Below are positions 1,155 through 22,470 of a stretch of 41,568 bases of DNA, in pieces. Source of the DNA: Candidatus Helarchaeota archaeon (GTDB lineage: Archaea; Asgardarchaeota; Lokiarchaeia; Helarchaeales; RDOG01); assembly GCA_019058315.1 (NCBI GenBank), contig JAHPZH010000003.1:1-41568 (forward strand), read 5' to 3'. Every line of letters starts with the position of its first letter. Position 1 is the stretch's first letter. The position numbers and the translations under genes are program-made. The notes under the pieces are model-generated. The model was given only the letters and a program-made list of their open reading frames with translations, did no database searches and was not told where the DNA came from.

Positions 1155-1248
1155 TAATTAGTATATATTAATTATAATTGATATATTAATTCAAAGATTA
1201 ATTGAGGATCTTTTTTGAGGAGAAAATTATGAAATGGAGGTTTAAACC

Positions 1249-2235: not shown

Positions 2236-2258
2236 AATAATTTTGTTTGGTGTTATTA

Positions 2259-2765: not shown

Positions 2766-2857
2766 TATGGATTTTGATTGAATTTAGGAACATTCTTCAA
2801 ACAATTTAAATATCATAAAAATATTAAAGAAGTGAAATTAAGATGTAAAGACTCATT

Positions 2858-3853: not shown

Positions 3854-3911
3854 AAGTAATTATAATCAAGGATTTAATCTTTAATTATGTTTAATAATTA
3901 GTGAGTAAAAT

Positions 3912-4382: not shown

Positions 4383-4411
4383 ATCTTTTTACACATTTTT
4401 AAAAATTTGAA

Positions 4412-4453
4412 TTTTCGGATCGGTTACGAAAACTTTTTTAACCGGTTCGAAAA
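4412..4453 (+). promoter_or_regulatory. Inverted repeat enclosing a BRE/TATA-like element upstream of the PLD-fold gene
   Basis: TTTTCGGATCGGTTA / TAACCGGTTCGAAAA, 15-bp stem with two G-T wobbles, around CGAAAACTTTTT; ATG at 4464. Confidence 0.5.
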
Positions 4454-4463
4454 AGTATAAATT

Positions 4464-5588: not shown

Positions 5589-5597
5589 AGAAATTTA

Positions 5598-6584: not shown

Positions 6585-6955
6585 ATGTGAGGGATAGATT
6601 GTCAGAAGAAAAGGAACTCATTATAGAGTTCGAGAAATATAGGAAGAATAAAATTGATAATTTCAAGAATGAGTATAAATCACGTCTTAAAGATCGGTTC
6701 CGCTTTTTAGTAGATTTAATAGTCAATAAAATCCCCTTGGACTCGGCTGTGGATTTCAAGGGGTTGAATGGGATGTGTAAATGTGGAAAAAAAATAAGTA
6801 AGGGGTCTTTATACAAGGATGGCACGGTCGTGGGGTCAACCTGTGCAAAAACTTTAAGTGATATTGCCTCCGAATTTTCAATGGTTGAGCAATTTATTTT
6901 ATTAAAAGAAGAGGAATTAAATAGAAAATTAAAAGAATTAAGAGAAAGAATATAA
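6581..6955 (+). CDS. Small Cys-motif coiled-coil protein
   Basis: CKCGKKI...VGSTCAK; TTG start overlapping upstream TGA (TTGA) suggests translational coupling. Confidence 0.65.
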   Translation: MNVRDRLSEEKELIIEFEKYRKNKIDNFKNEYKSRLKDRFRFLVDLIVNKIPLDSAVDFKGLNGMCKCGKKISKGSLYKDGTVVGSTCAKTLSDIASEFSMVEQFILLKEEELNRKLKELRERI

Positions 6956-6972
6956 ATAATAAAAGGGATAAT

Positions 6973-7806
6973 ATGGGAGATTGGAAGACCAAATTAATAA
7001 AATTTCAAACATTACTGGATGATATCGGAAAATCTAGAGGAAATCTAAAATTCGATAAGAGTTTTTTGGCAGTTCACGAACTTGCAGATCAGACCTTTTG
7101 TGAGAAAGCAGCCGAATTAACACAAGCATTAGCAACAACCGAGGATTTTCAACCAACCGAGCAGCAGCTGGTCGGGAAGATGTCTCACGAAAAGTTGACT
7201 GAAGATGGCGTCCCAATATCTTTCTTAAATATTTGGAAGGAGATATATGAAAGGAAGAATTGTTATGTTCATGAGATGTTGTTGGCAGCTAATTATCAAG
7301 GAGTGGGAATATTGGGCAAACCAGACTTGGTCTACTTCGAGAGTGCTGTTCCTCGCTTCATTTTCGAATTTAAATTCAGTAAGCATTACAAGCCTTTTGC
7401 TAATTACCATGTGCAAGCACAAGTCTATGGTTACCAATTGAACCAAATGGGGTTTGACACGACGGACCTTTTTTACGCGTTCATAATTGCAAAACCAAGG
7501 TGGAAAAATAACATTGAATTCGTAAAATTAATACCAAAAAGGACAATGGAACGATTTCACAAGGATAAGCTATACGAACTAGACCAGAGCATGATGACTT
7601 TCAATAATATCGGAGTATATATAAATAAGTTCATTCCAGAAAAAGCGATAAAAGAATTAGACTTTTGCCTAGGTTATTGGTTGGATAAGAGGAAAGCCAT
7701 ACCGACACAGAATAAGAACAAGTGCAGGAGTTGCAAGGTCAAGAAGCATTGCAAATTTTATTTAATGAGACAAGATTGGAAAGGAAGGAAGTTTTATGAT
7801 AGATGA
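6973..7806 (+). CDS. Solo Cas4/Exo5-like PD-(D/E)XK nuclease with Fe-S cysteines
   Basis: FCE, GxxxH (GKMSH), GKPD, EFK, QAQVYG, C-terminal CRSCKVKKHC. Confidence 0.85.
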   Translation: MGDWKTKLIKFQTLLDDIGKSRGNLKFDKSFLAVHELADQTFCEKAAELTQALATTEDFQPTEQQLVGKMSHEKLTEDGVPISFLNIWKEIYERKNCYVHEMLLAANYQGVGILGKPDLVYFESAVPRFIFEFKFSKHYKPFANYHVQAQVYGYQLNQMGFDTTDLFYAFIIAKPRWKNNIEFVKLIPKRTMERFHKDKLYELDQSMMTFNNIGVYINKFIPEKAIKELDFCLGYWLDKRKAIPTQNKNKCRSCKVKKHCKFYLMRQDWKGRKFYDR

Positions 7807-7822
7807 GAGGATAATTATACCC

Positions 7823-8941
7823 TTAGAAAATTTCATTTTTAAGATAGTCAGATAAAAAATCATCCAACAATGCTTCTCCAACCGATATTGGATACCATTT
7901 TCTACCCCAATCCGAATCAAGGTAAAATCTAAGATAGAAATCAATACTGTAAATTCCTTCATCCTCCCATATAAACAATCTATCAAGAAATCCTTTAATG
8001 GCTAACTCCCTAGTATTAGGAGTAAAGGGTGAAAAATCAATATTATTAATGATTTTTTTAAATTCTCTAGTCCATTTGGCTTTAAATTTTATACTCATAT
8101 CCATGATATAGGTAAAATCCTGCGTAAAATCCTCCAATTTTTCATTTAAAAATGGATATTTGTCTTTATTAATAAAATAATATTCTAATAATTTATTAAT
8201 AATGTAACTGTAAGTATTATTTCTCGTGATTAATTCATTATGTAAAAAAGTCTCTCTTCCTAACTTTTTTTCTAATTCTATTATCTCCTTATTAAGTTTT
8301 TTAGAATTGAAATATAGACCATCAAAAATATAACCAAAAAAGAGTTCCTTTGCAACTCCTCCATAATCCTTAAAATAAATTCTGGGAACGTACCAACTTC
8401 TTAATGCAAGCATTAGTTCACCAGATAATTCTTCTAACGAAAAGAGGACTTTATTATGTTTAACATTATAATTGAAAAAACTCGCCAAAAAATCTTTTAA
8501 AATTTCATTTAAATTTTCTGATGGATTTCTATAATTTTCTCTTAATTCTTGAATCTCTTTGTTAATTTTCTCTTTCATAGTTTTAAACCTTTTTTTAGAT
8601 AATTTATATTTTAAGCTATTGATCTTTTTTTGAATTAACTCTTGATATTGGATTATAATTGCTGACTCTTTAAATTCTTGAATAAAAGATTCCTTAAGGT
8701 CATTAACATTAAGCTCAAGTGATTCTCTTAATTGATAAAGAGAAGTTAATTTTCGGAATATTAAAATATACAACATTTCTTGAAAATGGTCATACTTATG
8801 TCTTTTAAAAAAGGGTCTTTTCTTTTTTCTATCATTTCCTCGTAAATAAATCAGACTTTTTATTTCATTATTTAATATTGGCATTAATGGATGATAGATT
8901 TCAAAATTCCCTAATTCTTCTTGGGATTCATAAGGACTCAA
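7823..8941 (-). CDS. Hypothetical helical protein
   Basis: 372-codon ORF in very AT-rich DNA, TTG start, GTGAT SD-like motif upstream; no motif recognised. Confidence 0.7.
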   Translation of the reverse strand: MSPYESQEELGNFEIYHPLMPILNNEIKSLIYLRGNDRKKKRPFFKRHKYDHFQEMLYILIFRKLTSLYQLRESLELNVNDLKESFIQEFKESAIIIQYQELIQKKINSLKYKLSKKRFKTMKEKINKEIQELRENYRNPSENLNEILKDFLASFFNYNVKHNKVLFSLEELSGELMLALRSWYVPRIYFKDYGGVAKELFFGYIFDGLYFNSKKLNKEIIELEKKLGRETFLHNELITRNNTYSYIINKLLEYYFINKDKYPFLNEKLEDFTQDFTYIMDMSIKFKAKWTREFKKIINNIDFSPFTPNTRELAIKGFLDRLFIWEDEGIYSIDFYLRFYLDSDWGRKWYPISVGEALLDDFLSDYLKNEIF

Positions 8942-9352
8942 TATTAATCACTTTTTTTATACTTTTTAAAAAAATTTTTGAATTATTTTTTAATATTTTC
9001 TAGTAATTTTTTATATATATATATTTTATATTAGACCAAATATAAGAAAATTCTTATTTTATGAAATTTTTTTTACTTTTTAAGAATTTAAAGTTGAAAA
9101 TGATAAGATTTCAAGATATTATAGCCAATTAATTAAGTAATCATGAGTTTTTTTGATTTAAAAATTTAGCTTCAATAAAAGAATCGATAAAATCCATTGA
9201 TTCTCTAATTCTTTATTAAAATCATAATAATTAAAAAATTAAAATTTTTTTAAAATTTTCTAAATTGTTTTAAAGAGATTTCTAAGGCTTTCCGCGTATT
9301 TTTGAGAGTTCGGGGATCGGTCAGCTTTATATATAACCGCTAGTTATAATTA

Positions 9353-9385
9353 TATAAAAAAATATAAAAAAATATAAAAAAATAA
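9353..9385. repeat. Short tandem repeat, about 3 copies of a 10-nt unit (TATAAAAAAA), directly before the start codon
   Basis: tataaaaaaa tataaaaaaa tataaaaaaa taa then ATG 9386. Confidence 0.7.
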
Positions 9386-10078
9386 ATGGTAAATAAGATG
9401 AAAAAGAATAAATCTTTCCAAAAAACTATCGATCAATATCAAATTGCAATCTGGACAACATGGATTCGAGATTTAATGACATCTGAAGATTGTGAGCTTA
9501 AACTTTGGAAGAAAGCACATGGTTTTAAAGAAGAAATCAAGTCTCAGTGGCCTGTTATATTCAAATTAAGGCATGATTCATTGGTTAGAAAGACTAAAAA
9601 GGTATTTCTAAGAAAAAACCCAGGATATAGCCCTAAATCTCTGAGAATCAGAGTAGATTTGGCTCCCATCTTAAAGGCGAATGGCTATTGTACTTATTAT
9701 GATAAAATATTGATAACTGGAGTTACTGATTGTACTTTTCTTAATGATGGAAAACTACTTAATATTGTAAATGCCGAAATTAAGACAAGTTCTTTCGCGA
9801 CAAACAAACAGGAGTGCCAAGCCATAATCTATGATTATTTACTTGGGTATCTATATCCTAACTCGAAGAGAAAATCGATATTGGTATCTATTGATAATAG
9901 CGGAGAATTTCTGATACAAGAGAAAATTTTCAATTTAACTAAATATGAAGATCTGATTCTAGATGCTATCGCTTATCTTTCGTCTCCGAAACCTCCGAAA
10001 CCACTTGAAATCGAGCTTTATAAAAAGCCAATGTGTAATTGGTGCGGGTTTATTAACTGTAAGTTACGAGGAGTTTAA
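9386..10078 (+). CDS. Second, divergent Cas4-like PD-(D/E)XK nuclease
   Basis: Early Cys (CELKL), RH, GVTD, EIKT, QAIIY, C-terminal CNWCGFINC. Confidence 0.75.
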   Translation: MVNKMKKNKSFQKTIDQYQIAIWTTWIRDLMTSEDCELKLWKKAHGFKEEIKSQWPVIFKLRHDSLVRKTKKVFLRKNPGYSPKSLRIRVDLAPILKANGYCTYYDKILITGVTDCTFLNDGKLLNIVNAEIKTSSFATNKQECQAIIYDYLLGYLYPNSKRKSILVSIDNSGEFLIQEKIFNLTKYEDLILDAIAYLSSPKPPKPLEIELYKKPMCNWCGFINCKLRGV

Positions 10079-10121
10079 TTTAGGATATTCAAACGCATAG
10101 AATATCCACTAAATTTTTTTT
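10077..10121 (+). terminator. Stem-loop followed by a T tract after the Cas4-like gene
   Basis: AATTTAGGATATTC / GAATATCC(AC)TAAATT, then a T run. Confidence 0.5.
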
Positions 10122-10133
10122 ATTAAGAAAAAT

Positions 10134-10388
10134 GTGGAAAGAATCTTGAATTTAGATCAACTTTATAAAATTGTTAAGAATGCGATAATAAGAGAGATAG
10201 AGGGAATTAAGACTCTTAACTTAGTTTATGAATTTAGCGAAAAATCTGCCTTATTAGATTTTTACTATAAAAATTATCTTAAAGAGAGTTTTGATATAAT
10301 AAATTCTCTTATTAAGGGGTTTAACGTGCTGATGCGGAATGAGAGACTAACAAGGGATAAAGATTATCACCTTTCAATTTATTCATAG
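10134..10388 (+). CDS. Short hypothetical protein, possibly the 5' part of a decayed gene
   Basis: 84-aa ORF; another frame stays open to about 10513 (PFNLFIDRDSPRGIVNING...). Confidence 0.4.
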   Translation: MERILNLDQLYKIVKNAIIREIEGIKTLNLVYEFSEKSALLDFYYKNYLKESFDIINSLIKGFNVLMRNERLTRDKDYHLSIYS

Positions 10389-10774
10389 ATAGAGATTCCC
10401 CAAGAGGTATAGTAAATATTAATGGTATCCTCAAACTGCGGGTGCAATTACGAGTTAAATTGGATAAATTGATAATAGATTTTTGTGAATATTATTCGTT
10501 TCATTCAAATTAATTAAGAATCAAGGTTAGTAATCTATTATATAAGCGGAAGTCATAATTAGATGGAGTATTTAAATTGGCTAGTGAATTAAAAAATGAA
10601 TTTTGAAAAAAAATTTTTTTTCAAAGAAAAAAGTCGGGTTAGAAGTTAAAATTAAGTTTGATTACAATAAAAATCCGTTAGAATTATAAATAATGAGTTT
10701 TTGAAGATCAATAACTCATTCTATTTATTGGTAATCTGCAGCTACCGACAAAAAAGAATGAATAACTTGTATCA

Positions 10775-11959
10775 GTGACATCCTTTAACTCAAAAATAAA
10801 GGTGATTAATTTGAATAGTTCAAGTATAAAAGATGAATTACAGAATAATAATTTAGATTTTGAGCACCATCCAATTGTACCAGCATTATTTGATTATCGA
10901 AATTACAAAAATTATATTAATAAATTGTTTAATAAAAATTTAAAAGGATTTTTGAATTATGAAGGCTTCGATGTAAAGCGCCCTGGAGATATTTTTTGGA
11001 GAATTGTCGAAAAAAAACCAGTTAATAAGGATATATATTATCAATTAGCTCGATTTTTTACATTTAAAATAAATTCGCATATTGCGGTTAAAGAAGGAAA
11101 ATTAGATGAGGCATATGCAAAATTAGAATTAGAATGGTTCGATTATTTAAACGAAAATTTCTTTTTCCCTTATTGTCTTAATTTTGATGATAATTTCTAT
11201 AATGATCTAATGAATTATTGCCTCTCAGATGCTAGAAATTACTCTTTAGTCTTAGAAAATGATGTAGATGCTCTAGCAAAGTTAAATGATCTTGCCAAAA
11301 CTGGAAATATCGTAAAATTCTTTCCAAAATTTAAAGAACAGTTTACCAATCAATATATTATGTTTGAGCGTATTAGTTTAAAACTTGGGACAAAAATTAG
11401 CGAAATTCTTTATCGTGATTATTATTTTCGACAAAATACATCCAAAAAACCTTTAAAGAAACCACCTAGAGCTCCGAAAAATATTGAAGATGTTTATCAT
11501 TTATATCCAAATCCTAGCTCAAGAACTCCAAAGACAAAAGACTGGAATCTTTTCACCCTTTTAAAAAATTTGAAACACATCAAAAATTCTATTGGCTCTC
11601 ACAAGGAATTTCAATATCACCCCTTACTTAATCCTAGTGAGGTAATCATTGAAGACTTTGATCCTCGTAAAAATCAAATAACTTTTAGAGAAAATTTCAA
11701 TATTCCGAAACTACAGACATATATGCAAAGTCTTCTTTTTTTATATAAAGGTTTTAAGCATATTAGCATGTTTTATTCGATTATAACTCCATTACTTAAA
11801 CAGTACGCTCCTAAAAAACCACTTCTTATTCAATGTCCTTGTTGTTATTTCCTATTTAATTCCTCTGTTAAACCAACTCTTAAATTTTTTACTGTTATAT
11901 GCCCAAATTGTTTTTGTATTTTTCAATTTTACCGTCCTATATTGATGATATTTAAGTAA
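10775..11959 (+). CDS. Hypothetical protein with a possible divergent HEPN segment and C-terminal zinc ribbon
   Basis: LKHIKNSIGSH resembles RNx4H with R to K; C-terminal CPCC...CPNC. Confidence 0.6.
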   Translation: MTSFNSKIKVINLNSSSIKDELQNNNLDFEHHPIVPALFDYRNYKNYINKLFNKNLKGFLNYEGFDVKRPGDIFWRIVEKKPVNKDIYYQLARFFTFKINSHIAVKEGKLDEAYAKLELEWFDYLNENFFFPYCLNFDDNFYNDLMNYCLSDARNYSLVLENDVDALAKLNDLAKTGNIVKFFPKFKEQFTNQYIMFERISLKLGTKISEILYRDYYFRQNTSKKPLKKPPRAPKNIEDVYHLYPNPSSRTPKTKDWNLFTLLKNLKHIKNSIGSHKEFQYHPLLNPSEVIIEDFDPRKNQITFRENFNIPKLQTYMQSLLFLYKGFKHISMFYSIITPLLKQYAPKKPLLIQCPCCYFLFNSSVKPTLKFFTVICPNCFCIFQFYRPILMIFK

Positions 11960-12000
11960 TTCTGAAGAATAATAATGGAAAGCTTGAGAAGGTTAAAAAA

Positions 12001-12510
12001 ATGCTTATACTTGAATGCATGTCAAATGAAGAAACACGAAATGAGGGTCGTGTCGTATACAATTATTTAAATATGTTTCATGACCTTCCAGTTGAACCAA
12101 GACTGAAAAGAGTTTTAACTAAAAAAAGCTTTTTACAAACTCTTGAATACTCAAATGAAAATTTTATTCACGTTTCTACACATGGAAGCAGAGAAAAGGA
12201 ATCATATTATATTGATTTACCCAATGGTGAAGTATATCCTGAAGATTTTGAAGATTTTGATTTTAGTAATGTTCAAATTATTTTTACAGGTTGTCTTTTA
12301 GGAAGAGGTGATTTTGCTGGAAGAGTTTCCTATATCACAAAAGCAAAATATTTAATTGCTCCATTTAATAATATATCATTTGTTAATTCTGCGACATTTT
12401 GTATACTTTTCTATTATCACTTGTTTACTCGAAATTCTCTGTCTTTTTCAAGAAGTTACACATGGGTTGCTAAAAGGTTACCTGTTAAAGGAGCATTGCG
12501 TTTATATTAA
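12001..12510 (+). CDS. Stand-alone CHAT/caspase-like protease domain
   Basis: FIHVSTHG and IIFTGC match the His-Gly and Cys dyad motifs of the caspase/CHAT fold. Confidence 0.75.
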   Translation: MLILECMSNEETRNEGRVVYNYLNMFHDLPVEPRLKRVLTKKSFLQTLEYSNENFIHVSTHGSREKESYYIDLPNGEVYPEDFEDFDFSNVQIIFTGCLLGRGDFAGRVSYITKAKYLIAPFNNISFVNSATFCILFYYHLFTRNSLSFSRSYTWVAKRLPVKGALRLY

Positions 12511-12536
12511 GGAACTTTAAAATAAATCATCTTGTC

Positions 12537-12582
12537 AAATGAAAAATATGAAGGACGAGAATATTGATTTTTGGAAAAATCA
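12537..12582 (+). repeat. Direct repeat copy 1: orphan duplicate of the RNase III gene 5' end
   Basis: 43/46 nt identical to 19653-19698; encodes MKNMKDENIDFWKN vs MENIKDENIDFWKN. Confidence 0.9.
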
Positions 12583-12588
12583 ATCGTT

Positions 12589-14373
12589 TTAGATTTTATT
12601 CTTAATTTTTTCTAAAATTTCAGTAATCTCTGAAGGGGTTTTATTGAGGTTCTTCATTTTAAAAGCTATTAGATTTGCCAATTCTCCTTTTCTAACCCCA
12701 AAATGTTGAGCTAATTTTCCAAGTATTAACTTTCCACTTAATTCCTTTAATGATTTTTCTTTATCTTTTTGAATTTCTTTCAGCTGAATTATTGTTTCAT
12801 TATAAATTTTCTTTAATCTATCAGACTTTTTTTTGCACACAATTGAGAATTTCTTTAATAGATCATCTAAATCATCCCATCCTTCTGAAAAATAAAACTT
12901 TGTCTTATCTTTTAACCTTAGTTGTATTTCATCTGTTAAAGTATTAGAGTTTTCAATAATAGTCTTAATTAATTCTTCGATATTCTCCTTACTTTTTATT
13001 TCTTTTTCTTCAATTCTTTTTTTACCTGGGATAACTTTTAATGCTTCATAAATTACTCCCGAATCTAATAATAAATAATTCTCAATGCATGTTCTGGACC
13101 AAATAAAACAATATTCTTTATTTTTTTCAGGGGGCTCTCGATCTTTATCAATAATTGCACAAATACCAAAACCATTTTTTCTGAGTTCATCAATTACTTT
13201 ATCAAAAATTTCAGTGAAAAGTAAAATCTTACCTTTTCCTTCTAAGGATATTAATGTCAAATTGTCCTCAATATCAGGATCTAATAATCTTAATATCTCA
13301 ATATCGCTATTTCCTTCTAATAATAAAAATGGTCTATTTAAAGATAAGTATGGTAGCCCTATGTCTCCCAGGAATGTTTTGATCAAATCTAAGTTCTCCT
13401 GTTCAATAACAAATTTAATAATCTGGTTTCCATCTTTTACTTGATCCGGGAAAACCATAAAATAAAGCTCATTTGCTTTTGCTTCGTTTATTATTGTTGC
13501 AGAATGAGTGGCAATGAAAATTTGTAAATTTTCTCTTCTCTCCTCAGCTAATTTGATTTCATTTCGTAAATATGATAAAAATTTTTTCTGAAGTAATGGA
13601 TGTAAATAAGCTTCAGGACTATCAATTAAAAAAACTAAATCTTGATTTGGTAATCTTTTGCCAATCGCTCTGAAATATATGTTTTCAATTTTTTTTTCAA
13701 CAAAGGGAAATAAAATTGCTATTATATCCTTTTCTCCAGAACTTAACTGGTCAAATTCTACTTTATTTCCTGATTTATTTAAAAAATATATGTTATAATA
13801 TCCTTCAACACTAAGTTCTACACCATCAAACTGAAGTCTTGGTAATAAGTTTTTGATAAAGATTCTAAATGGTTCAAATAGGTCTTTGGGAACTTTACCC
13901 TCTGGAATTTTCCCCCCATATTTATTAAATACATCTTCTAGAAGAAGAGAATGACGATTTTTTATTTCTAATAAGGTTATTTTTAATCCAGCATAAGGAG
14001 CAAAGTCTGGTAATGATTTATCTCGGAAATCCATATTTCTAAAGTAATTAGGCATTCTTACTGGAGTACCTCCAGTATCAATATAATAATCAATTCTTGC
14101 AAGAGTATCGATATATGTTCCATATGGTTTAATAGATAATAAGGATTTATGTAATGGAAAATTCATTGGTGTTCTATATGGAGAAATATAGATGATTTTT
14201 CCTGTACCCTCAACAATGACTTTCTCTTGCTGAACTATTTTTCTTAAGTTATCTAACAATGTGGATTTTCCAACGCCATTTGCACCAGCTATTATATTTA
14301 GGGAGTTAAGATTTTCTGATTTAGCAAGTTTTATCGGTCCCAAATCACTTATTTGAAACTTTTCAATAGGCAT
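12589..14373 (-). CDS. OLD-family ABC-type ATPase plus TOPRIM nuclease
   Basis: GANGVGKST, LSSGE, LIDSPEAYLHP, ATHS, TOPRIM LLEGNSD and IIDKD. Confidence 0.9.
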   Translation of the reverse strand: MPIEKFQISDLGPIKLAKSENLNSLNIIAGANGVGKSTLLDNLRKIVQQEKVIVEGTGKIIYISPYRTPMNFPLHKSLLSIKPYGTYIDTLARIDYYIDTGGTPVRMPNYFRNMDFRDKSLPDFAPYAGLKITLLEIKNRHSLLLEDVFNKYGGKIPEGKVPKDLFEPFRIFIKNLLPRLQFDGVELSVEGYYNIYFLNKSGNKVEFDQLSSGEKDIIAILFPFVEKKIENIYFRAIGKRLPNQDLVFLIDSPEAYLHPLLQKKFLSYLRNEIKLAEERRENLQIFIATHSATIINEAKANELYFMVFPDQVKDGNQIIKFVIEQENLDLIKTFLGDIGLPYLSLNRPFLLLEGNSDIEILRLLDPDIEDNLTLISLEGKGKILLFTEIFDKVIDELRKNGFGICAIIDKDREPPEKNKEYCFIWSRTCIENYLLLDSGVIYEALKVIPGKKRIEEKEIKSKENIEELIKTIIENSNTLTDEIQLRLKDKTKFYFSEGWDDLDDLLKKFSIVCKKKSDRLKKIYNETIIQLKEIQKDKEKSLKELSGKLILGKLAQHFGVRKGELANLIAFKMKNLNKTPSEITEILEKIKNKI

Positions 14374-14420
14374 TCTTGAACACCTAAACCATTTTTAAAG
14401 CTAATAAAAGTTTTTATTAT

Positions 14421-15770
14421 TCATTTAGATAAAATTGAATCGACTTTTAGGTTTAAATTTTCTATCTTTTTCTCAATATCATTTAATTTATTTTGAATTG
14501 CATAAAATTTGTAATTAGGTAAAGTAGATAAATAATAATCATAGTTCCATTCATTTTGTAATAAATCCATTATTGTTTCGACATAGAGATTATAATTTTT
14601 AATAGTCTCAACATCTGCTTCTGAGAAATCATAAATTGCCTGAAATTCGCAACTAAGACCGATATTACTGTATTTTTCCATTAAACTTTCTTGAGTTTCA
14701 AACTGTTTTAATAAATTATCATCAGTTATTGCCATTCTTGACGGATGAAAGAAATCCAAACCTTTACTATATCTAGAAAAGCGAAAAATGAATGTTAGCT
14801 CGATTATTTCATTTTTTAAAATTAACTGTGATTTATTCCCCTTATTATCAAATTTAATTTTTAATTCCGTATCTGGGGGAACATAGAAACCAAAAATACT
14901 CAATGGATAATAAATTTCTTTAATATTCCATGATAATGACTCAAGAATTGAATTCTTTGGAGGTAAAGGTATATTATCAATAGAAATTCTTAATTTTTTA
15001 ACAGATGTATCTAATGGACCATATCCTGTGGATCCCTTATCTCTTCTAATTATACTTAGCCAAGAATGGCTAAAAACCTTTGAAAATGAATTTATAAAAG
15101 CATAGGGAGTGATTTCAATAAATAAAGGAAATAAATTTTCATTTTTTTCGTAAATCATAGTTTGAACCTTTTCATTAATCTCTGCTAAAGATATATCATA
15201 GTCAAACACATATCTAGGTTGTTCATCTTGAATTAATATTTGAAAAGGATCTCGAGAAAAATTAAGAACTATTTTAAAATTATATGAAAAATTAGGATTA
15301 TCTTCATATTTGAATAACCAATATAACTGCCCATCTCTGACTAATCTTTTACCATGACTTGTACGAATATAATAGATTCTACTTTTAATCTCTGGTCCAG
15401 TTCTTGATACAATATATGCATGAGGAATATTCTTTCGCTTTGGTATATTTATAATTAAAACATCGCCTTTATCGTTCTGTAAGAATTCAGTAGAACATTC
15501 AATAACTGGACTAATTTTATCCTGACAAATATTATCGATTAATTGTTTATCTAGATCTACGTTGAAAATATCTTTCCCTTCAAAATTTCCATCATCTTTA
15601 ATGCCTAGTATTAGCTTTCCACCAAATTTATTAGCAAAAGCTACGATTTCATAAGCTAAATTCCTTTGGCCTTCTTTGGTTCTTAAAATAAGTGATTGTT
15701 TTAATTCATTTTTTAAATTTTCTTTGTCTTTTTTTTTCAAAATTTCATTTAATTCATCATTTGTAGTCAT
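14421..15770 (-). CDS. Schlafen/AlbA_2 domain protein with uncharacterised C-terminal domain
   Basis: ENLKNELK, EIVAFANKFGGKLILGIKD, YYIRTSHG. Confidence 0.85.
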   Translation of the reverse strand: MTTNDELNEILKKKDKENLKNELKQSLILRTKEGQRNLAYEIVAFANKFGGKLILGIKDDGNFEGKDIFNVDLDKQLIDNICQDKISPVIECSTEFLQNDKGDVLIINIPKRKNIPHAYIVSRTGPEIKSRIYYIRTSHGKRLVRDGQLYWLFKYEDNPNFSYNFKIVLNFSRDPFQILIQDEQPRYVFDYDISLAEINEKVQTMIYEKNENLFPLFIEITPYAFINSFSKVFSHSWLSIIRRDKGSTGYGPLDTSVKKLRISIDNIPLPPKNSILESLSWNIKEIYYPLSIFGFYVPPDTELKIKFDNKGNKSQLILKNEIIELTFIFRFSRYSKGLDFFHPSRMAITDDNLLKQFETQESLMEKYSNIGLSCEFQAIYDFSEADVETIKNYNLYVETIMDLLQNEWNYDYYLSTLPNYKFYAIQNKLNDIEKKIENLNLKVDSILSK

Positions 15771-15856
15771 ATTTCTTTGTGCTCCTATATAGTTAAATCA
15801 TATTGAAAATATCTTTAATTTAAATTGAAATAATTCATAATAGTAATCATCTAATT

Positions 15857-17230
15857 TTAGACTCTTTGTCTTAACATTTTCGAAACTTCATCATTAACTG
15901 TCTGTAATGTCATGTTATATAAATTAAATATTTCATACAAAGGATCTAGTAAATTTTTAACGATTTCTGGGAGTATATTATTAATTCTTTCAGCATTTGT
16001 GATTGTTTTTAATTTTATATTATCTTGGTGACTTCGATGATAATCAAAGAATGGTCACCTTAATGAACTTTGTATACTTTTCAATACCCTGTTATTTAAT
16101 CCTTCATACTCTACGTAAAATAATATGGAATCGTTCTCAACATTTAAATTATTAACCAAACGCTTTGCATGAAGTAAACATTCACCAATTCTCCATATTT
16201 GTAGAATTGGATCTAAAATTGTTCCCGATTCAAATTGATCAGTACTATCTTCTTGGTATCCTCTTACTAAATACATAAATCCGTTTGGAGATGCTCTCCA
16301 ATAGTCTGACTCTGCTGGAATCCCATTAAAAATTGGACCAAACCAACATTCAATAACTCCTTCTACTGTATAAGGTTGTGCGTTAGGAAAATTTGACCAC
16401 ATCCAAGGAGGCCAACCTGTAATATTTGATTCGGTATGAATTAAAACATTTCTAAAATCTCTTAGATTTAATATTTCAAATTCTCCTTTTACTTGATATG
16501 CAACAACATATTTTCCTCTATTGTAAGGTGAAGAAAATGGTAAATCACTTAATAATGATTCTACTTTTTCATTTGATTGAGTATTCCAATTTTCAAGTTC
16601 ATTCCATTCATAATCTTCGGATGGAGTAGTTGATGAAAGATTTGTAACGTTTAACAATATTTCTCTTATATTATTGATTAGTATTTCTCTATTTGCTTGA
16701 ATACAACGATTTATTAATTCATTCCACTCATGTGCTGTTTGTGGAGGTTCGCTTCTAGGACCAGGGCGTCTTGTATAATATTTATTGGCTTGAATATATT
16801 GCTCATTTGGACCACTTCTTTTCGAACGGATTGGTACTCTATGACCTCCTGGTATTCTGATTATTGGAAATTTTATACCTTCTATTGGATGTTCTATATG
16901 ATAAATTTCACATTGAAATGTGGGATCTGCATATCGTTCTATGATACCTTGAATTCTATCAAAAGTACATTCATTTAAATATCTATTATGCTCTTGAGAT
17001 TCAGGAATTGATGGAATCAAGTCATTACCCTCTTGTTCAAAACCTAGAAGAATATAACCACCACCATAATTTGCTAAAGCTAACATTGATTTAGCTAAAA
17101 CAGCTTGGTGTTCAGTTGTTGTTAATTCGAGCCAATTTTTAACTTCTATATCAAGTTTTTCAATTGGATAACGAAGCAGTTCTTTTAAACGTCTTGTAAG
17201 GTCACTAATGATTGAATTATTAATTGTCAT
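15857..17230 (-). pseudogene. Schlafen/AlbA_2 domain protein interrupted by one in-frame TGA (16055-16057); nonsense allele or readthrough
   Basis: EKLDIEVK, LALANYGGGYILLG; after the TGA the frame continues for 65 codons (PFFDYHRSHQD...ILPEIVKNLLDPLYEIFN...RQRV) to TAA at 15857. Confidence 0.75.
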
Positions 17231-17626
17231 TTATTTAACCGTTATATTTTATACATAATAAAATTGAAACTAAAAGTTGAATGAAACTAAAGAATTTTGA
17301 ACTATGATTCCCAAATTTCAAAGTTCCATCGAGATTTCAATTATTGAGAGTAAAAAAATTGTAAATTTTTCGACTTTATTAACACAATCCTCATTTATAT
17401 ACTTTTGGAAAATTTAACTATATTTTTGTCGGTTAATGATATAAATTGCTTTTTTCTCTTTCCCATCTAAATAATTTGATATAGAGCGACATAAAAAAAT
17501 CATATATGAAAAGAATTGTAGTGAATTGTTGTTTTTTATGAATGTTTAAATTTAAATGGGGGAGTAAAATTTATCCTGACTTAATATTTAAAGAACTAAA
17601 AAATATTTATTTAAAATCATTGAATA

Positions 17627-18697
17627 TTGATTCTGTTGAGGAGATATACTTTGAAAAAAATTTTTAAAATTGAACAGATTCAAAAATTTAAAGAATGGAA
17701 AAGATTTCTTAAGACAAAAAAAGCTCTAAGGTGGGATAAAGAAGAAAAAGAAGCCGAAGTGAAAATTAATAACATTTTAAAAACTAAAAACTTTCAAAAT
17801 GGTGGTCCTCTATCAGAATCCGACCTAGATGAAATTTTTAGACTAATGAAAGCATTTAGTACTAATCCGATCTTAGGAAAAAATCTGTATGAATTAAATA
17901 CATTAAAGAAATTTTCAGATAAGTTGAGAGATTTATATTATGGTAATAGAGAGCTTCCAGACAGAGTTCAAGACTTTTTGAGTCTTAAAAATGTCAAAGT
18001 ATTCACATTATCTCATTTTTTATATGCCTTTGATTCAAAGCAGTATCCATTATTATCTCGATTCTCAAGACCATATTTTGGCTTAAATAAAGACCAAGAA
18101 GATTTGGCTTTAGATCTGGCATTAGATCGTTTTAAAATAAAGCCCATTTTTAAATATACATATCATACGAGAAAATACCTTAAAGATGTTATTATCTATG
18201 AAGAATTAAAAGAGTTATTAAATTTAGATAATTACCGTCAACTTAACGATCTATTTTGGCTTGCATATGAAAAAAAGGAGGAAATCCCTAAAATTTTAAA
18301 AATGGGATTTGAGATAGAAAAACATCTTGAAGATTTTATTGAACATAATTGGTCAAATATCGATTGGGGTTCTAATCTTGAATTATATACGATAGGAGAC
18401 CAAACTGGACGACAATTCAAGGCAGGTAAATGGAAAATAGATTTTTTAGCAATAGATGTAGATACAAATGATCTTGTTGTTATAGAATTGAAAAGAGATA
18501 AACCAAGTAGTAAAGTTTTGGAACAAGTATTGAAATATATAGCTTGGGTTAAAAAATATATTGCTACTGGATCTCAAAAAGTCAGAGGTATTATTATTGC
18601 TAATAGAGGTGATAGAGACTTAAAGTTAGCTTTAACAACTTTGGATCACGTAGAAATAAGATTATTCGAAATAAATTTTAGTCTACAACCCTATTAA
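17627..18697 (+). CDS. Endonuclease with C-terminal NucS/DUF91-like PD-(D/E)XK domain
   Basis: EKHLEDFI, GRQF, IDFLAID, VVIELKR, QVLKYI, VRGIII; helical N-terminal domain; start uncertain. Confidence 0.8.
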   Translation: MILLRRYTLKKIFKIEQIQKFKEWKRFLKTKKALRWDKEEKEAEVKINNILKTKNFQNGGPLSESDLDEIFRLMKAFSTNPILGKNLYELNTLKKFSDKLRDLYYGNRELPDRVQDFLSLKNVKVFTLSHFLYAFDSKQYPLLSRFSRPYFGLNKDQEDLALDLALDRFKIKPIFKYTYHTRKYLKDVIIYEELKELLNLDNYRQLNDLFWLAYEKKEEIPKILKMGFEIEKHLEDFIEHNWSNIDWGSNLELYTIGDQTGRQFKAGKWKIDFLAIDVDTNDLVVIELKRDKPSSKVLEQVLKYIAWVKKYIATGSQKVRGIIIANRGDRDLKLALTTLDHVEIRLFEINFSLQPY

Positions 18698-18902
18698 ACC
18701 AAATTGCAATATGATATGAAATATTTCACTCAGCTAGATAGATGATTATTATTTATTTTGGAGTTTTGTCTCCAGATATGCAAAAGAAGATTGACTGGAG
18801 AAGAATAAAATAAAAGACCACAAACATAATATCAAAAAGGATAGGCGTTGGCGGGAATTATATGATGAGAGAGAAGGATTAGAGGGAACCAAAGTTATTA
18901 GG

Positions 18903-19541
18903 ATGTTAGAAGGATTTAATAACTCCATGTATATTCTTAAAAAGAATTATGAAATATTATTTAAAGTTATTGAATTATATAAAAGTAATCCTGAGTACTT
19001 TTTTGATAATGAAAAGAGGGGTGAATTTTTCAACGAGTTTTCGAGATGTCTGCATAATTATTTGGCAAGTATATCTTCTTTAGTCGACCATATCCGGGTT
19101 ATCCGAAAACAATTAAATAATTTAGAATTGGATGAATGGTCTAAATTAAATCTTTCAGAATTAAAAAATAATGATATTATTGTCTTTCTGCAAAATTTAC
19201 GTAATTACACTCAACATTATAAGTTACCATTGGTTAAGGCAACTATTTCGTTCACTCCAGATGGTTCTAAAGCACAAGAAGGAACTATTGATACTAATTT
19301 AGTATTATCAAAGGTAGAATTATTAAAATGGGATTCTTGGGGTGCAAAATCTAGAAAATTCATTGAAAACTCAGAAGAAAATATTGATATGGAAAAATTA
19401 ATTGTTGAATATCAAGAAATTATTTCAAAAAATTATAATGAATTTATTGAAAAGGTTCGTGACTTATACTCAAAACAAATAAAGGAATTTGAAGATATTA
19501 AAGCTGAAATGAAGCGAAAGTTTCATGATACGAGATATTAA
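18903..19541 (+). CDS. HEPN-like protein
   Basis: LHNYLASISSLVDH and LRNYTQH (Rx4H); frame is open upstream to CTG at 18795. Confidence 0.75.
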   Translation: MLEGFNNSMYILKKNYEILFKVIELYKSNPEYFFDNEKRGEFFNEFSRCLHNYLASISSLVDHIRVIRKQLNNLELDEWSKLNLSELKNNDIIVFLQNLRNYTQHYKLPLVKATISFTPDGSKAQEGTIDTNLVLSKVELLKWDSWGAKSRKFIENSEENIDMEKLIVEYQEIISKNYNEFIEKVRDLYSKQIKEFEDIKAEMKRKFHDTRY

Positions 19542-19619
19542 GAAATTGGCGGTGGCACAACGGAAATGCAAAAATACGTTATAGCATCGAAAGAATTAAA
19601 TATTCCTTTAGATCTTTGA
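19521..19619 (+). pseudogene. Orphan 3' end of an acyl-CoA dehydrogenase gene
   Basis: FHDTRY*EIGGGTTEMQKYVIASKELNIPLDL* aligns without gaps to the ACAD C-terminal motif (YRDAKVLEIYEGTSQIQEIIIG in the 35207-36382 gene). Confidence 0.8.
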
Positions 19620-19652
19620 TATTTTTATTAAAAAATAATTTTTGAGGAATTA

Positions 19653-19698
19653 AAATGGAAAATATAAAGGATGAGAATATTGATTTTTGGAAAAATCA
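19653..19698 (+). repeat. Direct repeat copy 2 (start of the intact RNase III gene)
   Basis: Shares a perfect 26-nt core GAGAATATTGATTTTTGGAAAAATCA with 12557-12582. Confidence 0.9.
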
Positions 19699-20059
19699 TG
19701 CAAGTTATGCTTATGAATTTGGAGTAAAATCGAATGAGGCATTAGCTACATTAGGCGACGCAGTAATAGGGTTGATTGTAGTAGAATATTACTATAATCA
19801 AGGGTTAACATGTGGTGAAATAACTATAGAGAAATCAAAACGTGTTTCTGACAAATATTTTGTAAAAATAGCGAAAAAGATTGGATTTGATAAACAATTA
19901 AGGTTAGGCTCGGGCATGGAGAAGCAAGATGGAAGGAATAATGAAAAGATTTTAGAAGAAATTTTTGAAGCATATTTTGGTTTCAAATATCTAACTGAAG
20001 GATTGGAAAAAACTAGAAATTCAGTTATAGACATTTTAGTTAAAAAAAATGAGCCATAA
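19655..20059 (+). CDS. rnc: Ribonuclease III domain protein lacking a dsRBD
   Basis: NEALATLGDAV signature, LEEIFEAYFG; GAGG SD. Confidence 0.8.
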   Translation: MENIKDENIDFWKNHASYAYEFGVKSNEALATLGDAVIGLIVVEYYYNQGLTCGEITIEKSKRVSDKYFVKIAKKIGFDKQLRLGSGMEKQDGRNNEKILEEIFEAYFGFKYLTEGLEKTRNSVIDILVKKNEP

Positions 20060-20078
20060 ATATCTGGAAGATTGAAAT

Positions 20079-20723
20079 ATGTTTTGGGAAAACAAATACA
20101 AAAATGAAAAATTTGTATGGGGAGAAAACCCCAGTGAATTAGGTAAAATAACAGTTCAATATTTAAAAAGTAATAATTTAATTAATAAAAATCTGGAATT
20201 ATTAGATATTGGCTGTGGTTATGGTCGTGATGTATTATACATATCAATGAATATTAATTGTAAGATTTTAGGGATAGATTCTTCTAAAGAGGCAATAATT
20301 CTTGCTAAAAAGAGTAAGAAAAAAGATATAGAATTTCGACATTGCGATTTTAAAGATTTGGATGATACTAAATTTGATATTATTACTAGCTCAAATTTTT
20401 ATCAAATATTAAAAAAACAAGAAAGAAATGCGCTTATTAAAACGATATCAAAAATATTAAAGCCAAATGGGTTATTATTTCTTAGCACACTTTCGGTTAA
20501 TGACCCTGAACATTTTGGTGAGGGAATTCCTATTTCTGGCGAACCTAATTCATATCAAATAGGGACTTACGTCCATTTTTGTACTTATGACGAATTAAAG
20601 AGAGATTTTAATTTTTTAAATATTGAAAAATTATACGAACATGAATATTATGAGCCCCGGGTTACTGGTGATGTTCATCATCATATTTCTTGGATATTAA
20701 TAGGCAAAAATATAGTTACTTAA
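20079..20723 (+). CDS. Class I SAM-dependent methyltransferase
   Basis: LLDIGCGYGRD, GIDSS, LKPNGLLFL. Confidence 0.9.
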   Translation: MFWENKYKNEKFVWGENPSELGKITVQYLKSNNLINKNLELLDIGCGYGRDVLYISMNINCKILGIDSSKEAIILAKKSKKKDIEFRHCDFKDLDDTKFDIITSSNFYQILKKQERNALIKTISKILKPNGLLFLSTLSVNDPEHFGEGIPISGEPNSYQIGTYVHFCTYDELKRDFNFLNIEKLYEHEYYEPRVTGDVHHHISWILIGKNIVT

Positions 20724-20842
20724 TTGGATTTGAGATAATTTAAACTGTTAAAAAGAAAGAATTGTTCTAATTAGTAACTTTATAAGGTACCGTAAATAAA
20801 ATAATTAAAAAGTATAATTTTGAACAATTAGTAAAATTATAA

Positions 20843-21556
20843 ATGAATAATTCATTAAATAATCTTAAAACAAAAATATTAGATGTGAAAAAATTGGGAT
20901 TTCTTGATAAAATAAAAAGAGACCTTAAATACAAGGCAACAAGTAAGACAGGATCAATGACTAGTACAGCAACTAGAGATAGAATACTTAAAAAAGAAGG
21001 CAGAAAGTTTTTTAAAGGACTTAAAAGGAAGATGCTGAGTAGAAAAATAAAAATGAAGCATATTGAAAATTTTGAAGAGTTTAAAGAAAAATTTGAAAAG
21101 GAAGCAGATGATCCAGAAAAAACAGTCTTCTTTTATTTGATTGGGGTGTTAGAATATATAACAGGTGATAAAAAACAGGGAGAACCAATGATTACTTTAA
21201 CGATTAGAAAAGATTATATGCAAGTAGATCCAGTATCACCCTCGGGATTGAAATTACCCCAGGCTGGGGAAGGTTACTTCGTACAACACATGCTTGAAGA
21301 CCCTAATATTGTGAAATCATTCCTGGGTGGTAATCCGGATAATAATTACGAAATCGATAAAGAAGAATTAGTAATGCATTTAGTAGGGAAAGAAGTTAAA
21401 AAGAAACATGCAGTTATTGATATACAAAGTGGCGGAAAAGATTTTTATTCCAGAGTTAAATTACAAAAAAATAAACATGGTATTTGGAAACTCTACGAAA
21501 CTTCATCAATAGCAACTGGCGTCCAAGAAAAGACAGAAGATAAAGACGATTTTTAA
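20843..21556 (+). CDS. Conserved hypothetical protein (DUF6935-like); start may be downstream
   Basis: KSFLGGNPDNNY, IQSGGKD, WKLYETSS; paralogous to 22605-23051. Confidence 0.6.
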   Translation: MNNSLNNLKTKILDVKKLGFLDKIKRDLKYKATSKTGSMTSTATRDRILKKEGRKFFKGLKRKMLSRKIKMKHIENFEEFKEKFEKEADDPEKTVFFYLIGVLEYITGDKKQGEPMITLTIRKDYMQVDPVSPSGLKLPQAGEGYFVQHMLEDPNIVKSFLGGNPDNNYEIDKEELVMHLVGKEVKKKHAVIDIQSGGKDFYSRVKLQKNKHGIWKLYETSSIATGVQEKTEDKDDF

Positions 21557-21621
21557 TATTTTTTTTTAATTTCTATTTTTTTTAATTTTATAAAAGAAAA
21601 AATAAAGAGAAATTTAATTTT

Positions 21622-22470
21622 TTATCTCAATTTATAACTTGGTTCACGTTTTTCGAGGAAAGATAAAACTCCTTCTGGTGCATCTTTTGTACTACCTGTA
21701 ATCACTTGGTTTCTATTCTCAAATAGAATTGCAGATTCAAGAGATGGTGCATCTATGCTTATATTTATTCCCTCTTTTGTTAATCTTAAGCCTAAAGGGC
21801 TTTTATTTAACATACTTTTAGCCATTTCGTCAGCTGCGGACATCAATTCATCATCAGGTACGACTTTAGAAACAAATCCTATTTTCTCTGCTTCTTTTGC
21901 ATCCATAAAGCGACCCGTATAAAGAAGTTCACTTGCACGAGATAATCCAATAAGTCTTGGTAGAAAATAACTACTGCCTAAATCGGTGCCCGAAACTCCA
22001 ATCTTGATAAATGCGTTATTAAAACGTGCGCTTTCGGAGGCTATTCTAATATCTGCGGCCATTGCAATAGTAAAACCTCCTCCTGCAGAAGCTCCATTAA
22101 CAGCAGCAATAATAGGTTGCGGGATTTTTCTCATTTTCAAGATTGTATTTGCAATCCATTTTTGAGCATAAAAATTTGTTTTAATTACATCACCCATATT
22201 CAGGAATTGAAGATGTTTGTATTTCTCAGGAGATTTTGCTTTTCTAATATGAGGAAATTCATTTAGATCTAATCCAGCAGAAAATCCTTTTCCCATTCCA
22301 GTTATAATTAAAACCCGACAATCGAAGTTCCATTCTAAATAATCTAAAATTTCATTGAACTCTTCCAATAATTTAATAGAGAGAGCATTAAGCTTTTTTG
22401 GTCGATTAAGTCGTAATATACTAACACCATTTTCTTTTTCTTCAAATAATATCGTTTCAAATTCTTTCAA
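21622..22470 (-). CDS. Enoyl-CoA hydratase/isomerase family protein
   Basis: LNRPKKLNAL, FSAGLDL, AAVNGASAGGG, ADIRIA. Confidence 0.95.
   Translation of the reverse strand: MKEFETILFEEKENGVSILRLNRPKKLNALSIKLLEEFNEILDYLEWNFDCRVLIITGMGKGFSAGLDLNEFPHIRKAKSPEKYKHLQFLNMGDVIKTNFYAQKWIANTILKMRKIPQPIIAAVNGASAGGGFTIAMAADIRIASESARFNNAFIKIGVSGTDLGSSYFLPRLIGLSRASELLYTGRFMDAKEAEKIGFVSKVVPDDELMSAADEMAKSMLNKSPLGLRLTKEGINISIDAPSLESAILFENRNQVITGSTKDAPEGVLSFLEKREPSYKLR

Follow-up and report, generated by a model that had tools for sequence, protein, structure and literature searches.

A duplicated mini-RNase III gene start in an integrase-less archaeal defence island is best read as a recombination scar

The left copy of a 46-nt direct repeat in a Candidatus Helarchaeota archaeon is best read as an ordinary recombination scar and not as a dedicated attachment site. 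With a probability of about 0.55, we favour the reading that it is a leftover mini-RNase III gene start within an integrase-less defence island, in which imported DNA was stacked via homology in the flanks and illegitimate joints left behind one stub of each flanking gene. The repeat lies on a 41,568-nucleotide stretch (contig JAHPZH010000003.1, positions 1 to 41,568; here the window) of an A+T-rich metagenome-assembled genome of 5.79 Mb, which is 94% complete with an estimated contamination of 6.6%. The two copies, at 12537–12582 and 19653–19698, are 7116 nt apart and identical at 43 of 46 bases, as the sequence-only reading of this DNA had described them. All three mismatches fall within the first 21 nt, outside the constrained codons, and are of the type found between orthologues.

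The right copy (plus strand) is the true start of a mini-RNase III-like gene (19655–20059, plus strand, 134 aa; PF14622, PF00636 and orthologues), while the left copy is an orphan 5' stub of such a gene (plus strand, 43/46 against the resident gene start). The stub consists of 2 nt, the ATG and 14 codons, after which homology is lost; it reads as a 17-aa ORF, and the duplicated start ends in ...AAAAATCA. It has four mismatches to the L026 orthologue and matches orthologues from other samples. The full gene, which had been called rnc, encodes a catalytic domain only, with a TIGR02191 score of 78.7 against a cut-off of 166. It is mini-III-like in architecture and not a canonical RNase III, and was the sole RNase III-domain gene found in a search of its own genome. 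Downstream follows a conserved right flank (20079–22470) of a SAM methyltransferase, a DUF6935 protein and an enoyl-CoA hydratase (minus strand), in the same order in L026, L027 and L040.

Comparison with relatives shows that the repeat lies in a locus of variable content flanked by two conserved genes. In L026/L027 and L034, an acyl-CoA dehydrogenase (ACAD) gene, a 35-nt spacer and the mini-RNase III gene follow each other with nothing between. L040 carries a different 5.5-kb insert at the same spot (131-aa and 1583-aa genes, no stubs), which stops 133 nt short of the mini-RNase III gene and does not use the palindrome discussed below, and in L033 the mini-RNase III gene has yet another upstream neighbour. 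Across the four or five lineages that could be compared, most of them on short contigs, the same conserved flanks thus enclose different content or none, as in core defence hotspots. The insertion polymorphism that the sequence-only reading had asked for therefore exists, but it is bounded by the ACAD end and the spacer and not by the palindrome.

The window contains the right-hand portion of this island. Segment X (1–12536; Pfam and PADLOC scans) holds defence-type genes and genes of unknown function, including DUF4145, HD and Cas4-like PD-(D/E)xK nuclease genes, an HNH-like protein (394 aa, 10775–11959) and a DUF6642/CHAT-like ORFan (169 aa, a singleton, 12001–12510). X is absent between ACAD and mini-RNase III in L026, L034 and L040; here it runs off the start of our contig (C11), and this start overlaps contig C4. 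A full ACAD gene is found on contig C3, 3.1 kb away from the contig end; it is a 90%-identical orthologue and has AFOR and aldolase genes as neighbours. Contigs C3 and C11 both end in repeats, and we infer that they are adjacent, with C4 and further DNA in between. As the full ACAD gene is at the end of the other contig, the variable region extends over at least 22 kb, of which the 7.1-kb cassette makes up the right-hand part.

This cassette, Y (12583–19544), contains the genes that had been recognised from the letters alone, namely OLD, two Schlafen, NucS-like and HEPN genes, the last with an R-x4-H motif. They encode a fused OLD-family ATPase-Toprim resembling AriAB of PARIS (12589–14373, minus strand; PADLOC AriAB 2e-75, Pfam AAA_21/AAA_15), two Schlafen AlbA_2-domain proteins (14421–15770, minus strand, PF04326 6e-18; 16055–17230, minus strand, PF04326 7e-7), a NucS_C-like PD-(D/E)xK nuclease assigned to the PADLOC candidate system PDC-S02 (17627–18697, plus strand; PDC-S02 2e-33, NucS_C 1e-4, the latter under the Pfam cut-off) and a HEPN-like protein of 212 aa (18903–19541, plus strand) that matched no Pfam family. 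The AriAB-like protein covers positions 249–692 of the 694 in the AriAB profile, has a complete C-terminus and found no match at E<=1e-20 among 300 genomes of the phylum; all cassette proteins are singletons. Both ends of Y abut gene remnants. The AriAB-like stop codon is 6 nt away from the mini-RNase III stub, and the HEPN-like ORF ends 3 nt before a stub of the ACAD gene, its final codons reaching up to or into that stub and its C-terminus being about 15 aa shorter than in 261-aa homologues.

The island (AriAB-like, two Schlafen, PDC-S02 nuclease, HEPN-like, Cas4-like, HD and HNH-like genes) is enriched in defence genes and carries no mobility genes, a further property of core defence hotspots. 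None of its ORFs matched an integrase, transposase or recombinase family in Pfam, PHROGs, NCBIfam or PADLOC, in agreement with the earlier observation that the window lacks a recombinase. The serine recombinase family PF00239 had no match in the whole genome, in a search whose control was positive in 12 of 14 genomes. A tyrosine-integrase island is not supported either: PF00589 has two matches in the genome, on contigs C5 and C7, and none in the assembled part of the island (C11:1–19654, the C3 tail and C4) or next to it.

What lies upstream of the right copy is native sequence. These approximately 110 nt comprise an orphan 3' stub of the ACAD gene (last 24 codons and stop, 19545–19619, plus strand; tblastn with the L026 ACAD, E 1.5e-7) and the normal spacer between ACAD and mini-RNase III (19620–19654, plus strand) with its A+T-rich box and a GAGG before the ATG, collinear with the empty-site relatives (the spacer with L026, L034 and L028). 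From left to right the locus reads ACAD end, X, mini-RNase III stub, Y, ACAD stub, spacer, mini-RNase III gene. The pairs of repeats thus interleave, which means that the right copy does not form an element's end. The ACAD tails are of two alleles: the stub has the 'type 1' tail (..IPL.L) of the empty-site relatives, and the full gene has the tail of L040 (..MQL.L), shared over about 190 nt. A breakpoint was located about 190 nt before the ACAD stop codon (max-chi-square, permutation p<0.0005; three full sequences compared), and the two tails have an identical 12-nt stretch with differences on either side. The tail shared with L040 would fit homologous exchange better than an attP arm. The right flank is likewise a mosaic, with patchy affinities across the mini-RNase III and methyltransferase genes (p about 0.02, three full sequences compared), and both flanks thus bear the signs of homologous exchange that mark core defence hotspots.

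Under the scar reading, the left 46-nt copy would be a dead mini-RNase III 5' stub that marks a seam within a composite island at least 22 kb long, which fills the variable spot between the conserved ACAD and mini-RNase III genes. The island would have grown stepwise, as DNA from related archaea was taken in several times. At each step, homologous recombination in a conserved flank, with the 3' part of the ACAD gene as the most likely place, would have anchored one end of the import, and an illegitimate joint would have closed the other. One such event may have left the resident ACAD tail as the stub at 19545–19619 with cassette Y to its left, the spacer and mini-RNase III gene behind it remaining untouched. 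A later event would have brought in X along with the opening 46 nt of a donor mini-RNase III gene, and this end was presumably joined just beyond the AriAB-like stop codon. The order and number of events and the anchoring side are a reconstruction that we infer from the present arrangement; an intermediate, with X but not Y or Y but not X, was not found in any data set. The scar reading comes close to one of two options proposed from the sequence, in which an earlier element had captured a host flank.

Homology-facilitated illegitimate recombination is a candidate mechanism, by analogy with bacterial arrays. Orphan gene ends from sequential displacement are attributed to it in PMC5361080, with reference to de Vries & Wackernagel 2002 and Meier & Wackernagel 2003. 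The T6SS effector-immunity clusters of Vibrio cholerae and the orphan 3' ends of Rhs/CDI loci resemble our locus in having a conserved anchor gene on one side, stacked modules that push older ones along, and stubs of the anchor or neighbour gene as short repeats, all without an integrase. Our locus differs in its host, an Asgard archaeon, in its cargo of anti-virus defence genes and in having stubs from both flanking genes.

A second and clearly less probable explanation is a Campbell-type integration, in which the resident gene start took up a circle with Y, a previously captured ACAD tail, the spacer and 46 nt from the start of mini-RNase III. The exchange, homologous or made by a host enzyme, would have fallen inside these 46 nt, which makes the left copy resident and the right copy imported. 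This yields exactly the order seen (stub, Y, ACAD stub, spacer, gene), the ACAD stub allele differs from that of the resident full gene, as expected of imported DNA, and the mismatches lie to the left of the shared stretch. However, X must already have adjoined the resident mini-RNase III start without spacer or ACAD tail, which demands an extra, unexplained deletion, and 46 nt is a very short substrate. In addition, at 90% identity the cassette proteins have no counterpart elsewhere, the repeat core had no match in the viral contigs of IMG/VR, and the proposed look for an excised circle or empty site returned no circular form or alternative joint in the only run that holds this DNA, a weak test made on contigs.

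The sequence-only reading had suggested an att site in rnc bounding a mobile 7.1-kb cassette. In this version, the palindrome in the repeat is the attB of a dedicated site-specific recombinase (serine-type, with a central GG) acting in trans or since lost, and the 7.1-kb unit is mobilisable and supplies a new 5' end. Direct repeats do surround a five-gene defence block. The inverted arms around a 2-nt centre are also real: the 18-nt palindrome, with 8-nt arms and a GG centre, is exact in both copies, has a chance expectation of 0.05 matches in the window and resembles serine-recombinase sites. Homology was further said to end exactly at the palindrome edge, which holds when the left copy is set against the right (12582/19698); against the L026 and L033 orthologues the match of the left stub can be extended to 12585, and its end is uncertain by about 3 nt.

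The palindrome nevertheless corresponds to the codons of DFWKNH, a peptide invariant in the 134-aa mini-RNase III family, and is unchanged in orthologues without the duplication (four other contigs, three lineages: L026/L027, L028, L033, L034). It is the look of these codons in an A+T-rich genome and no feature of an element, and at most a fragile end-point for the joint. Because an orthologue from another species, 76% identical, has the same 26-nt core without a difference, this core is uninformative on any crossover. Large serine integrases leave only few shared bases, in contrast to the 46 seen here. The genome, 94% complete, gave no PF00239 match, and no recombinase was found in the island. 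Native host-type DNA instead of element DNA abuts the right copy, the L040 insert lies elsewhere than at the site, the site itself was not found in viral contigs and no recurrent base-precise insertions were seen. A serine-integrase att site is thus not supported, and we consider the attB explanation very improbable. That the homology stops at the very end of the palindrome is a coincidence under the scar reading, unless palindromes favour breakage.

Slightly less credible still is that the DFWKNH palindrome is a genuine capture site for defence cassettes without an integrase, served by an unrecognised recombinase or by a host enzyme that works on the hairpin-forming sequence. If true, the cassettes would each bring a replacement promoter and gene start, making an integron-like platform inside an Asgard coding sequence. 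We place about equally little trust in a local duplication, in which the segment from the ACAD tail to mini-RNase III codon 15 was copied in place by a very long target duplication or a replication error, with X and Y arriving afterwards and the copies then diverging. Formally, the interleaved order equals a 154-nt tandem duplication plus later insertions, but we know of no transposition mechanism that gives 150-nt duplications, the left copy lacks the spacer and two further precise insertions would be needed. Moreover, the ACAD tails are different alleles. Each allele recurs in other lineages over about 190 nt, a length beyond that of the duplicated segment, and the present data suggest that the stub and the full-gene tail are not closest relatives.

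Chance similarity or an assembly artefact, conceivable in an A+T-rich genome with some contamination, is extremely improbable, given repeat junctions with E about 1.6e-12 in blastn against the whole genome, only two sites for the 21-nt core, a stub that matches orthologues of other samples and an independent 22.5-kb Logan contig, from the only run holding the DNA and probably its source sample, that covers 11000–20800 in one piece across both copies without differences. Misassembly, already held to be less likely in view of the three mismatches, is thus unlikely, and the genome search for additional core copies, made with 21 nt, recovered just the known pair.

The locus reveals no new recombination system and belongs with known recombination-driven islands. 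For core defence hotspots without marks of mobile elements, movement by homologous recombination in the flanks has been proposed (PMC10250203). cDHS1 of Pseudomonas aeruginosa (PMC10250203) likewise has fixed core flanks, content ranging from empty to tens of kb and defence enrichment; it was described from more than 1600 loci against about five lineages here, whereas our locus has explicit gene-end scars. In Asgard archaea, aloposons and proviruses are found at tRNA genes (PMC8813620), and Atabeyarchaeia have integrated elements with an 11-bp att motif as well as integrase-less 'defense islands' (PMC11529989). Integrase islands that duplicate the end of their target gene, at the 3' or 5' end of tRNA or protein genes, share with our locus the gene-end direct repeats and an intact gene at one border. 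Our locus departs from them in lacking an integrase, in having interleaved instead of nested or tandem repeat pairs, in the native sequence that surrounds the right repeat and in a 'site' that is a motif imposed by coding.

The island thereby documents a concrete variable defence-gene hot spot in Helarchaeota/Hodarchaeota-like Asgard archaea, flanked by ACAD and the mini-RNase III/methyltransferase pair. Mechanisms of island turnover in archaea have hardly been studied, and the readable scars point to integrase-free build-up, rare direct evidence of homology-assisted, partly illegitimate gene acquisition in archaea. The defined flanks provide a handle with which more variants of the island may be fished from metagenomes.

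The two repeat copies, at 12537–12582 and 19653–19698, are identical at 43 of 46 bases, with all three mismatches within the first 21 nt, which agrees with the sequence-only reading. The final 18 nt form a perfect inverted repeat around a GG centre, a palindrome expected 0.05 times in shuffled windows. Comparison of the repeat with the whole genome by blastn gave an E-value of about 1.6e-12, and a search of the 5.79-Mb genome for further copies of the 21-nt core of the palindrome repeat returned only the two known sites. A genome-wide scan for isolated short direct repeats yielded a handful, none like the 46-nt repeat, so the latter is not a general element family of the genome, a result that is only indicative as the filter also removed the 46-nt repeat itself. 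Misassembly, previously raised as a possibility, is unlikely because a single 22.5-kb Logan contig covers 11000–20800, including both copies, with zero differences. This contig derives from the sole public run containing the DNA, probably the source sample, which is kept as contigs, a form of data in which rare excision products are invisible. Small "joints" in the run data were set aside as they had 20-nt sides and came from unrelated contigs.

The right copy forms the start of a gene (19655–20059, plus strand) encoding a 134-aa protein that consists of the RNase III catalytic domain alone. The gene, previously taken for rnc, is mini-III-like and no canonical rnc, and it is the sole RNase III-domain gene found in the genome. 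Searches for orthologues in 40 GTDB relatives gave only weak matches to canonical RNase III genes of ~245 aa, with no synteny information, and related-locus scans with protein and alignment queries against genome and metagenome contigs recovered no true relatives; relatives of the locus were obtained via the protein collection. Orthologues with 55–98% identity have an invariant FWKNH, mostly preceded by D, and D-F-W-K-N-H in A+T-rich codons is the sequence of the palindrome. The exact 18-nt palindrome is also present in the orthologues on the related loci L026/L027, L028, L033, and L034, none of which has the duplication, and the entire 26-nt "perfect core" is identical in L026, which belongs to another species and encodes a protein of 76% identity. 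Both palindrome and perfect core thus result from coding constraint and do not argue for a crossover site. The left copy comprises 2 nt, ATG, and 14 codons and is a 5' stub, beyond which likeness to every orthologue stops within 0–3 nt. Where it departs from the resident start, at three positions, the changes resemble those that separate orthologues, e.g., K at codon 2, as in most relatives. The mini-RNase III tree lacked resolution and does not separate a resident from an imported gene body.

In the closest relatives, genes for a SAM methyltransferase and a DUF6935 protein come after the mini-RNase III gene (19655–21556 in the window), and this conserved trio may be a functional unit, e.g., in RNA processing or modification. 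Other Asgard relatives have an RNase III of ~245 aa in place of the 134-aa mini-III-like protein. L034 (positions 1–260) has an in-frame TAA where the tail of the acyl-CoA dehydrogenase (ACAD) gene has CAA (Q), and an in-frame TAG at codon 5 of the mini-RNase III gene, for which the look-up flags translation only with TAG read as Q; stop-codon recoding, DNA damage, or pseudogenes could underlie these stops.

The gene order in L026, from a Hodarchaeota-labelled MAG, is aldolase, AFOR, ACAD, a 35-nt spacer, mini-RNase III, SAM methyltransferase, DUF6935, and enoyl-CoA hydratase. L027 has the same sequence. Nothing but the spacer separates ACAD from mini-RNase III in these two loci, and L034 has the same junction. 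The right-hand genes after mini-RNase III in the present genome follow the order in L026. Upstream lies an orphan ACAD 3' stub, comprising the last 24 codons and the stop (19545–19619), then the normal spacer and the right repeat copy, all collinear with L026, L034, and L028. The border on this side is therefore the ACAD stub, with the native spacer between it and the repeat, instead of the repeat itself as previously read. The ACAD orthologue of this genome (90% identity) is located with AFOR and aldolase on another contig, C3, 3.1 kb from the contig end. The overall layout is ACAD (C3), at least 3.1 kb, a gap, possibly the 2.5-kb contig C4, the left island part (1–12536), the mini-RNase III stub, the cassette (12583–19544), the ACAD stub, the spacer, and the mini-RNase III gene. 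The two repeat pairs, ACAD ends and mini-RNase III starts, are interleaved, and no further copy of either stub was found in island or genome. What was read as a 7.1-kb "cassette" is the right part of a variable region that spans 22 kb or more.

Synteny alone suggests that C3 and the contig of the window (C11) are adjacent. C11 begins with a 55-mer common to the end of C4 and the start of contig C6, and C3 ends inside a repeat-rich gene, a 90%-identical paralogue of which opens contig C10. C11:1–169 and C6:1–168 are 96% identical, and the arrangement represents a collapsed repeat immediately upstream of the window. C4 (L045) encodes a 703-aa HerA/DUF87-type ATPase with a Cys-rich N-terminal region. 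The gene at the C3 end (L032, 5541–8684) converges on the ACAD stop and runs off the contig; its product (1047 aa or more) combines tandem repeats of coiled-coil type with two winged-helix domains at the C-terminus and matches LAGLIDADG_3 weakly.

L040, on a 36-kb contig of a Helarchaeota-labelled MAG, has the same flanks as this genome around a different insert of 5.5 kb, which carries genes for a 131-aa membrane protein and a 1583-aa protein, both on the minus strand. The insert stops 133 nt upstream of mini-RNase III, and L040 lacks duplicated gene ends. In L033 the 131-aa gene lies immediately upstream of mini-RNase III. The locus qualifies as a hot spot because, depending on the genome, it contains nothing, 5.5 kb, or no less than 22 kb. 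Comparison among relatives thus upheld insertion polymorphism at this locus, but not boundaries at the palindrome. An extra 428-aa ORF without Pfam family is located between AFOR and ACAD (L047, 269–1555, corresponding to C3:1478868–1480154), where L026 and L040 have only about 130–200 nt; this gap is a second small variable spot beside the hot spot.

Two ACAD tail alleles were distinguished, ..MQL.L in the full gene of this genome and in L040, and ..IPL.L in L026, L034, and the stub at 19545. A sharp shift in three-way site patterns occurs within ACAD ~190 nt before the stop (maximum chi-square 33, permutation p<0.0005), with 40 of 160 informative sites joining this genome with L040 upstream of the breakpoint and 38 of 56 downstream. 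The tail of the full gene is an allele linked to whatever is downstream, as would be expected if crossovers within ACAD exchange islands. Patchiness also extends to the right flank (p about 0.02). A tail supplied by an element as a chimera around a 12-nt core was considered and dropped, as L040 shares the tail allele over ~190 nt.

The cassette encodes a fused OLD-type ATPase-Toprim protein (PADLOC AriAB, 2e-75), two Schlafen AlbA_2 proteins, a PD-(D/E)xK nuclease (NucS_C-like, PADLOC PDC-S02), and a 212-aa HEPN-like protein. Four of these five genes are as previously listed, and the fifth, listed as HEPN, has an R-x4-H motif but no Pfam family. Each of the five proteins, like the 169-aa protein encoded next to the cassette, is a singleton in a set of ~15 billion proteins at 90% identity, and a search of 300 genomes from the phylum gave no match to the AriAB-like protein at E≤1e-20. 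The HEPN-like ORF stops 3 nt ahead of the ACAD stub, and its product lacks about 15 residues relative to homologues, which fits a joint cutting the 3' end of the ORF. The nearest homologue of the protein (30% identity; L044, 125–3404) is encoded on an unrelated metagenome contig, with a tyrosine integrase gene 1.5 kb away, so the family travels on mobile elements elsewhere. Left of the mini-RNase III stub (10775–12510), a 394-aa protein of a small family with conserved H-x2-N-x4-H and C-terminal CxxC pairs, possibly HNH-like, is followed by the 169-aa ORFan, for which the nearest clusters in the Atlas are associated with DUF6642/CHAT; together the two genes may form a defence module. The stretch at 940–1500 is a dispersed repeat (about 220–460 nt) that has copies of 86–96% identity at C11:734875, 735483, 737427, and 586175 (minus strand), C2:2975, and C1:20551 (minus strand), and could be a MITE-like or promoter-carrying element.

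The reading we consider best is stepwise import of DNA, anchored by homology and closed by an illegitimate joint at one end, with a probability of roughly 0.55. DNA with an ACAD 3' part and island genes ending in those of the cassette would first have recombined within ACAD, its other end being joined illegitimately inside the resident ACAD tail, which would have been left as a stub before the untouched spacer and mini-RNase III gene. A second fragment would later have entered likewise with the present ACAD tail allele, the left island part, and the donor's first 46 nt of mini-RNase III, joined 6 nt beyond the stop of the complete AriAB-like gene. Both the sequence of events and the side of anchoring are inferred, as no intermediate arrangement was found. 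The scheme accounts for the interleaved stubs, the two ACAD alleles, the tight joints, the lack of mobility genes, and the ortholog-like mismatches, and the fallback of the sequence-only reading, a captured host flank, came close to it.

Campbell-type insertion of a circle that carried the cassette genes and had captured an ACAD tail, the spacer, and the gene start would yield the observed order of genes and stubs, but it requires that the left island part already abutted the gene start and that crossover occurred within 46 nt, and we regard it as unlikely. A dedicated att site of serine-recombinase type at the palindrome, as proposed in the sequence-only reading, finds no support and is considerably less probable. 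The palindrome and perfect core are set by coding constraint, the right copy is embedded in native DNA, and the site shows no recurrent use. Profile scans (Pfam, PHROGs, NCBIfam, PADLOC) of ORFs of at least 80 aa in 1–19541, the C3 tail, and C4 detected no integrase or transposase, in line with the sequence-only reading, which saw no recombinase in the window. The wider search for recombinases found no Resolvase domain in the 94%-complete genome, with control genomes positive, and two Phage_integrase matches, on contigs C5 and C7. The mini-RNase III and ACAD cores had no matches in IMG/VR viral contigs. A hidden integrase in the 169-aa or 394-aa genes beside the stub was rejected, as these look DUF6642/CHAT-like and HNH-like, respectively. 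Local duplication of 154 nt is contradicted by the allele pattern and ranks slightly lower still, and a chance or artefactual origin of the repeat is in practice excluded.

In Vibrio T6SS and Rhs loci, "sequential displacement" leaves orphan gene ends and has been attributed to homology-facilitated illegitimate recombination (PMC5361080), and the scheme proposed here would be an archaeal counterpart. It also parallels core defence hotspots, which are thought to move via recombination in their flanks (PMC10250203). Other Asgard genomes are on record as having integrase-less "defense islands" (PMC11529989), and CRISPR-Cas loci between conserved flanks have been reported to undergo complete local displacement (PMC8813620). 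The example is new and the type of locus already known, and it is relevant to work on archaeal genome plasticity and defence islands.
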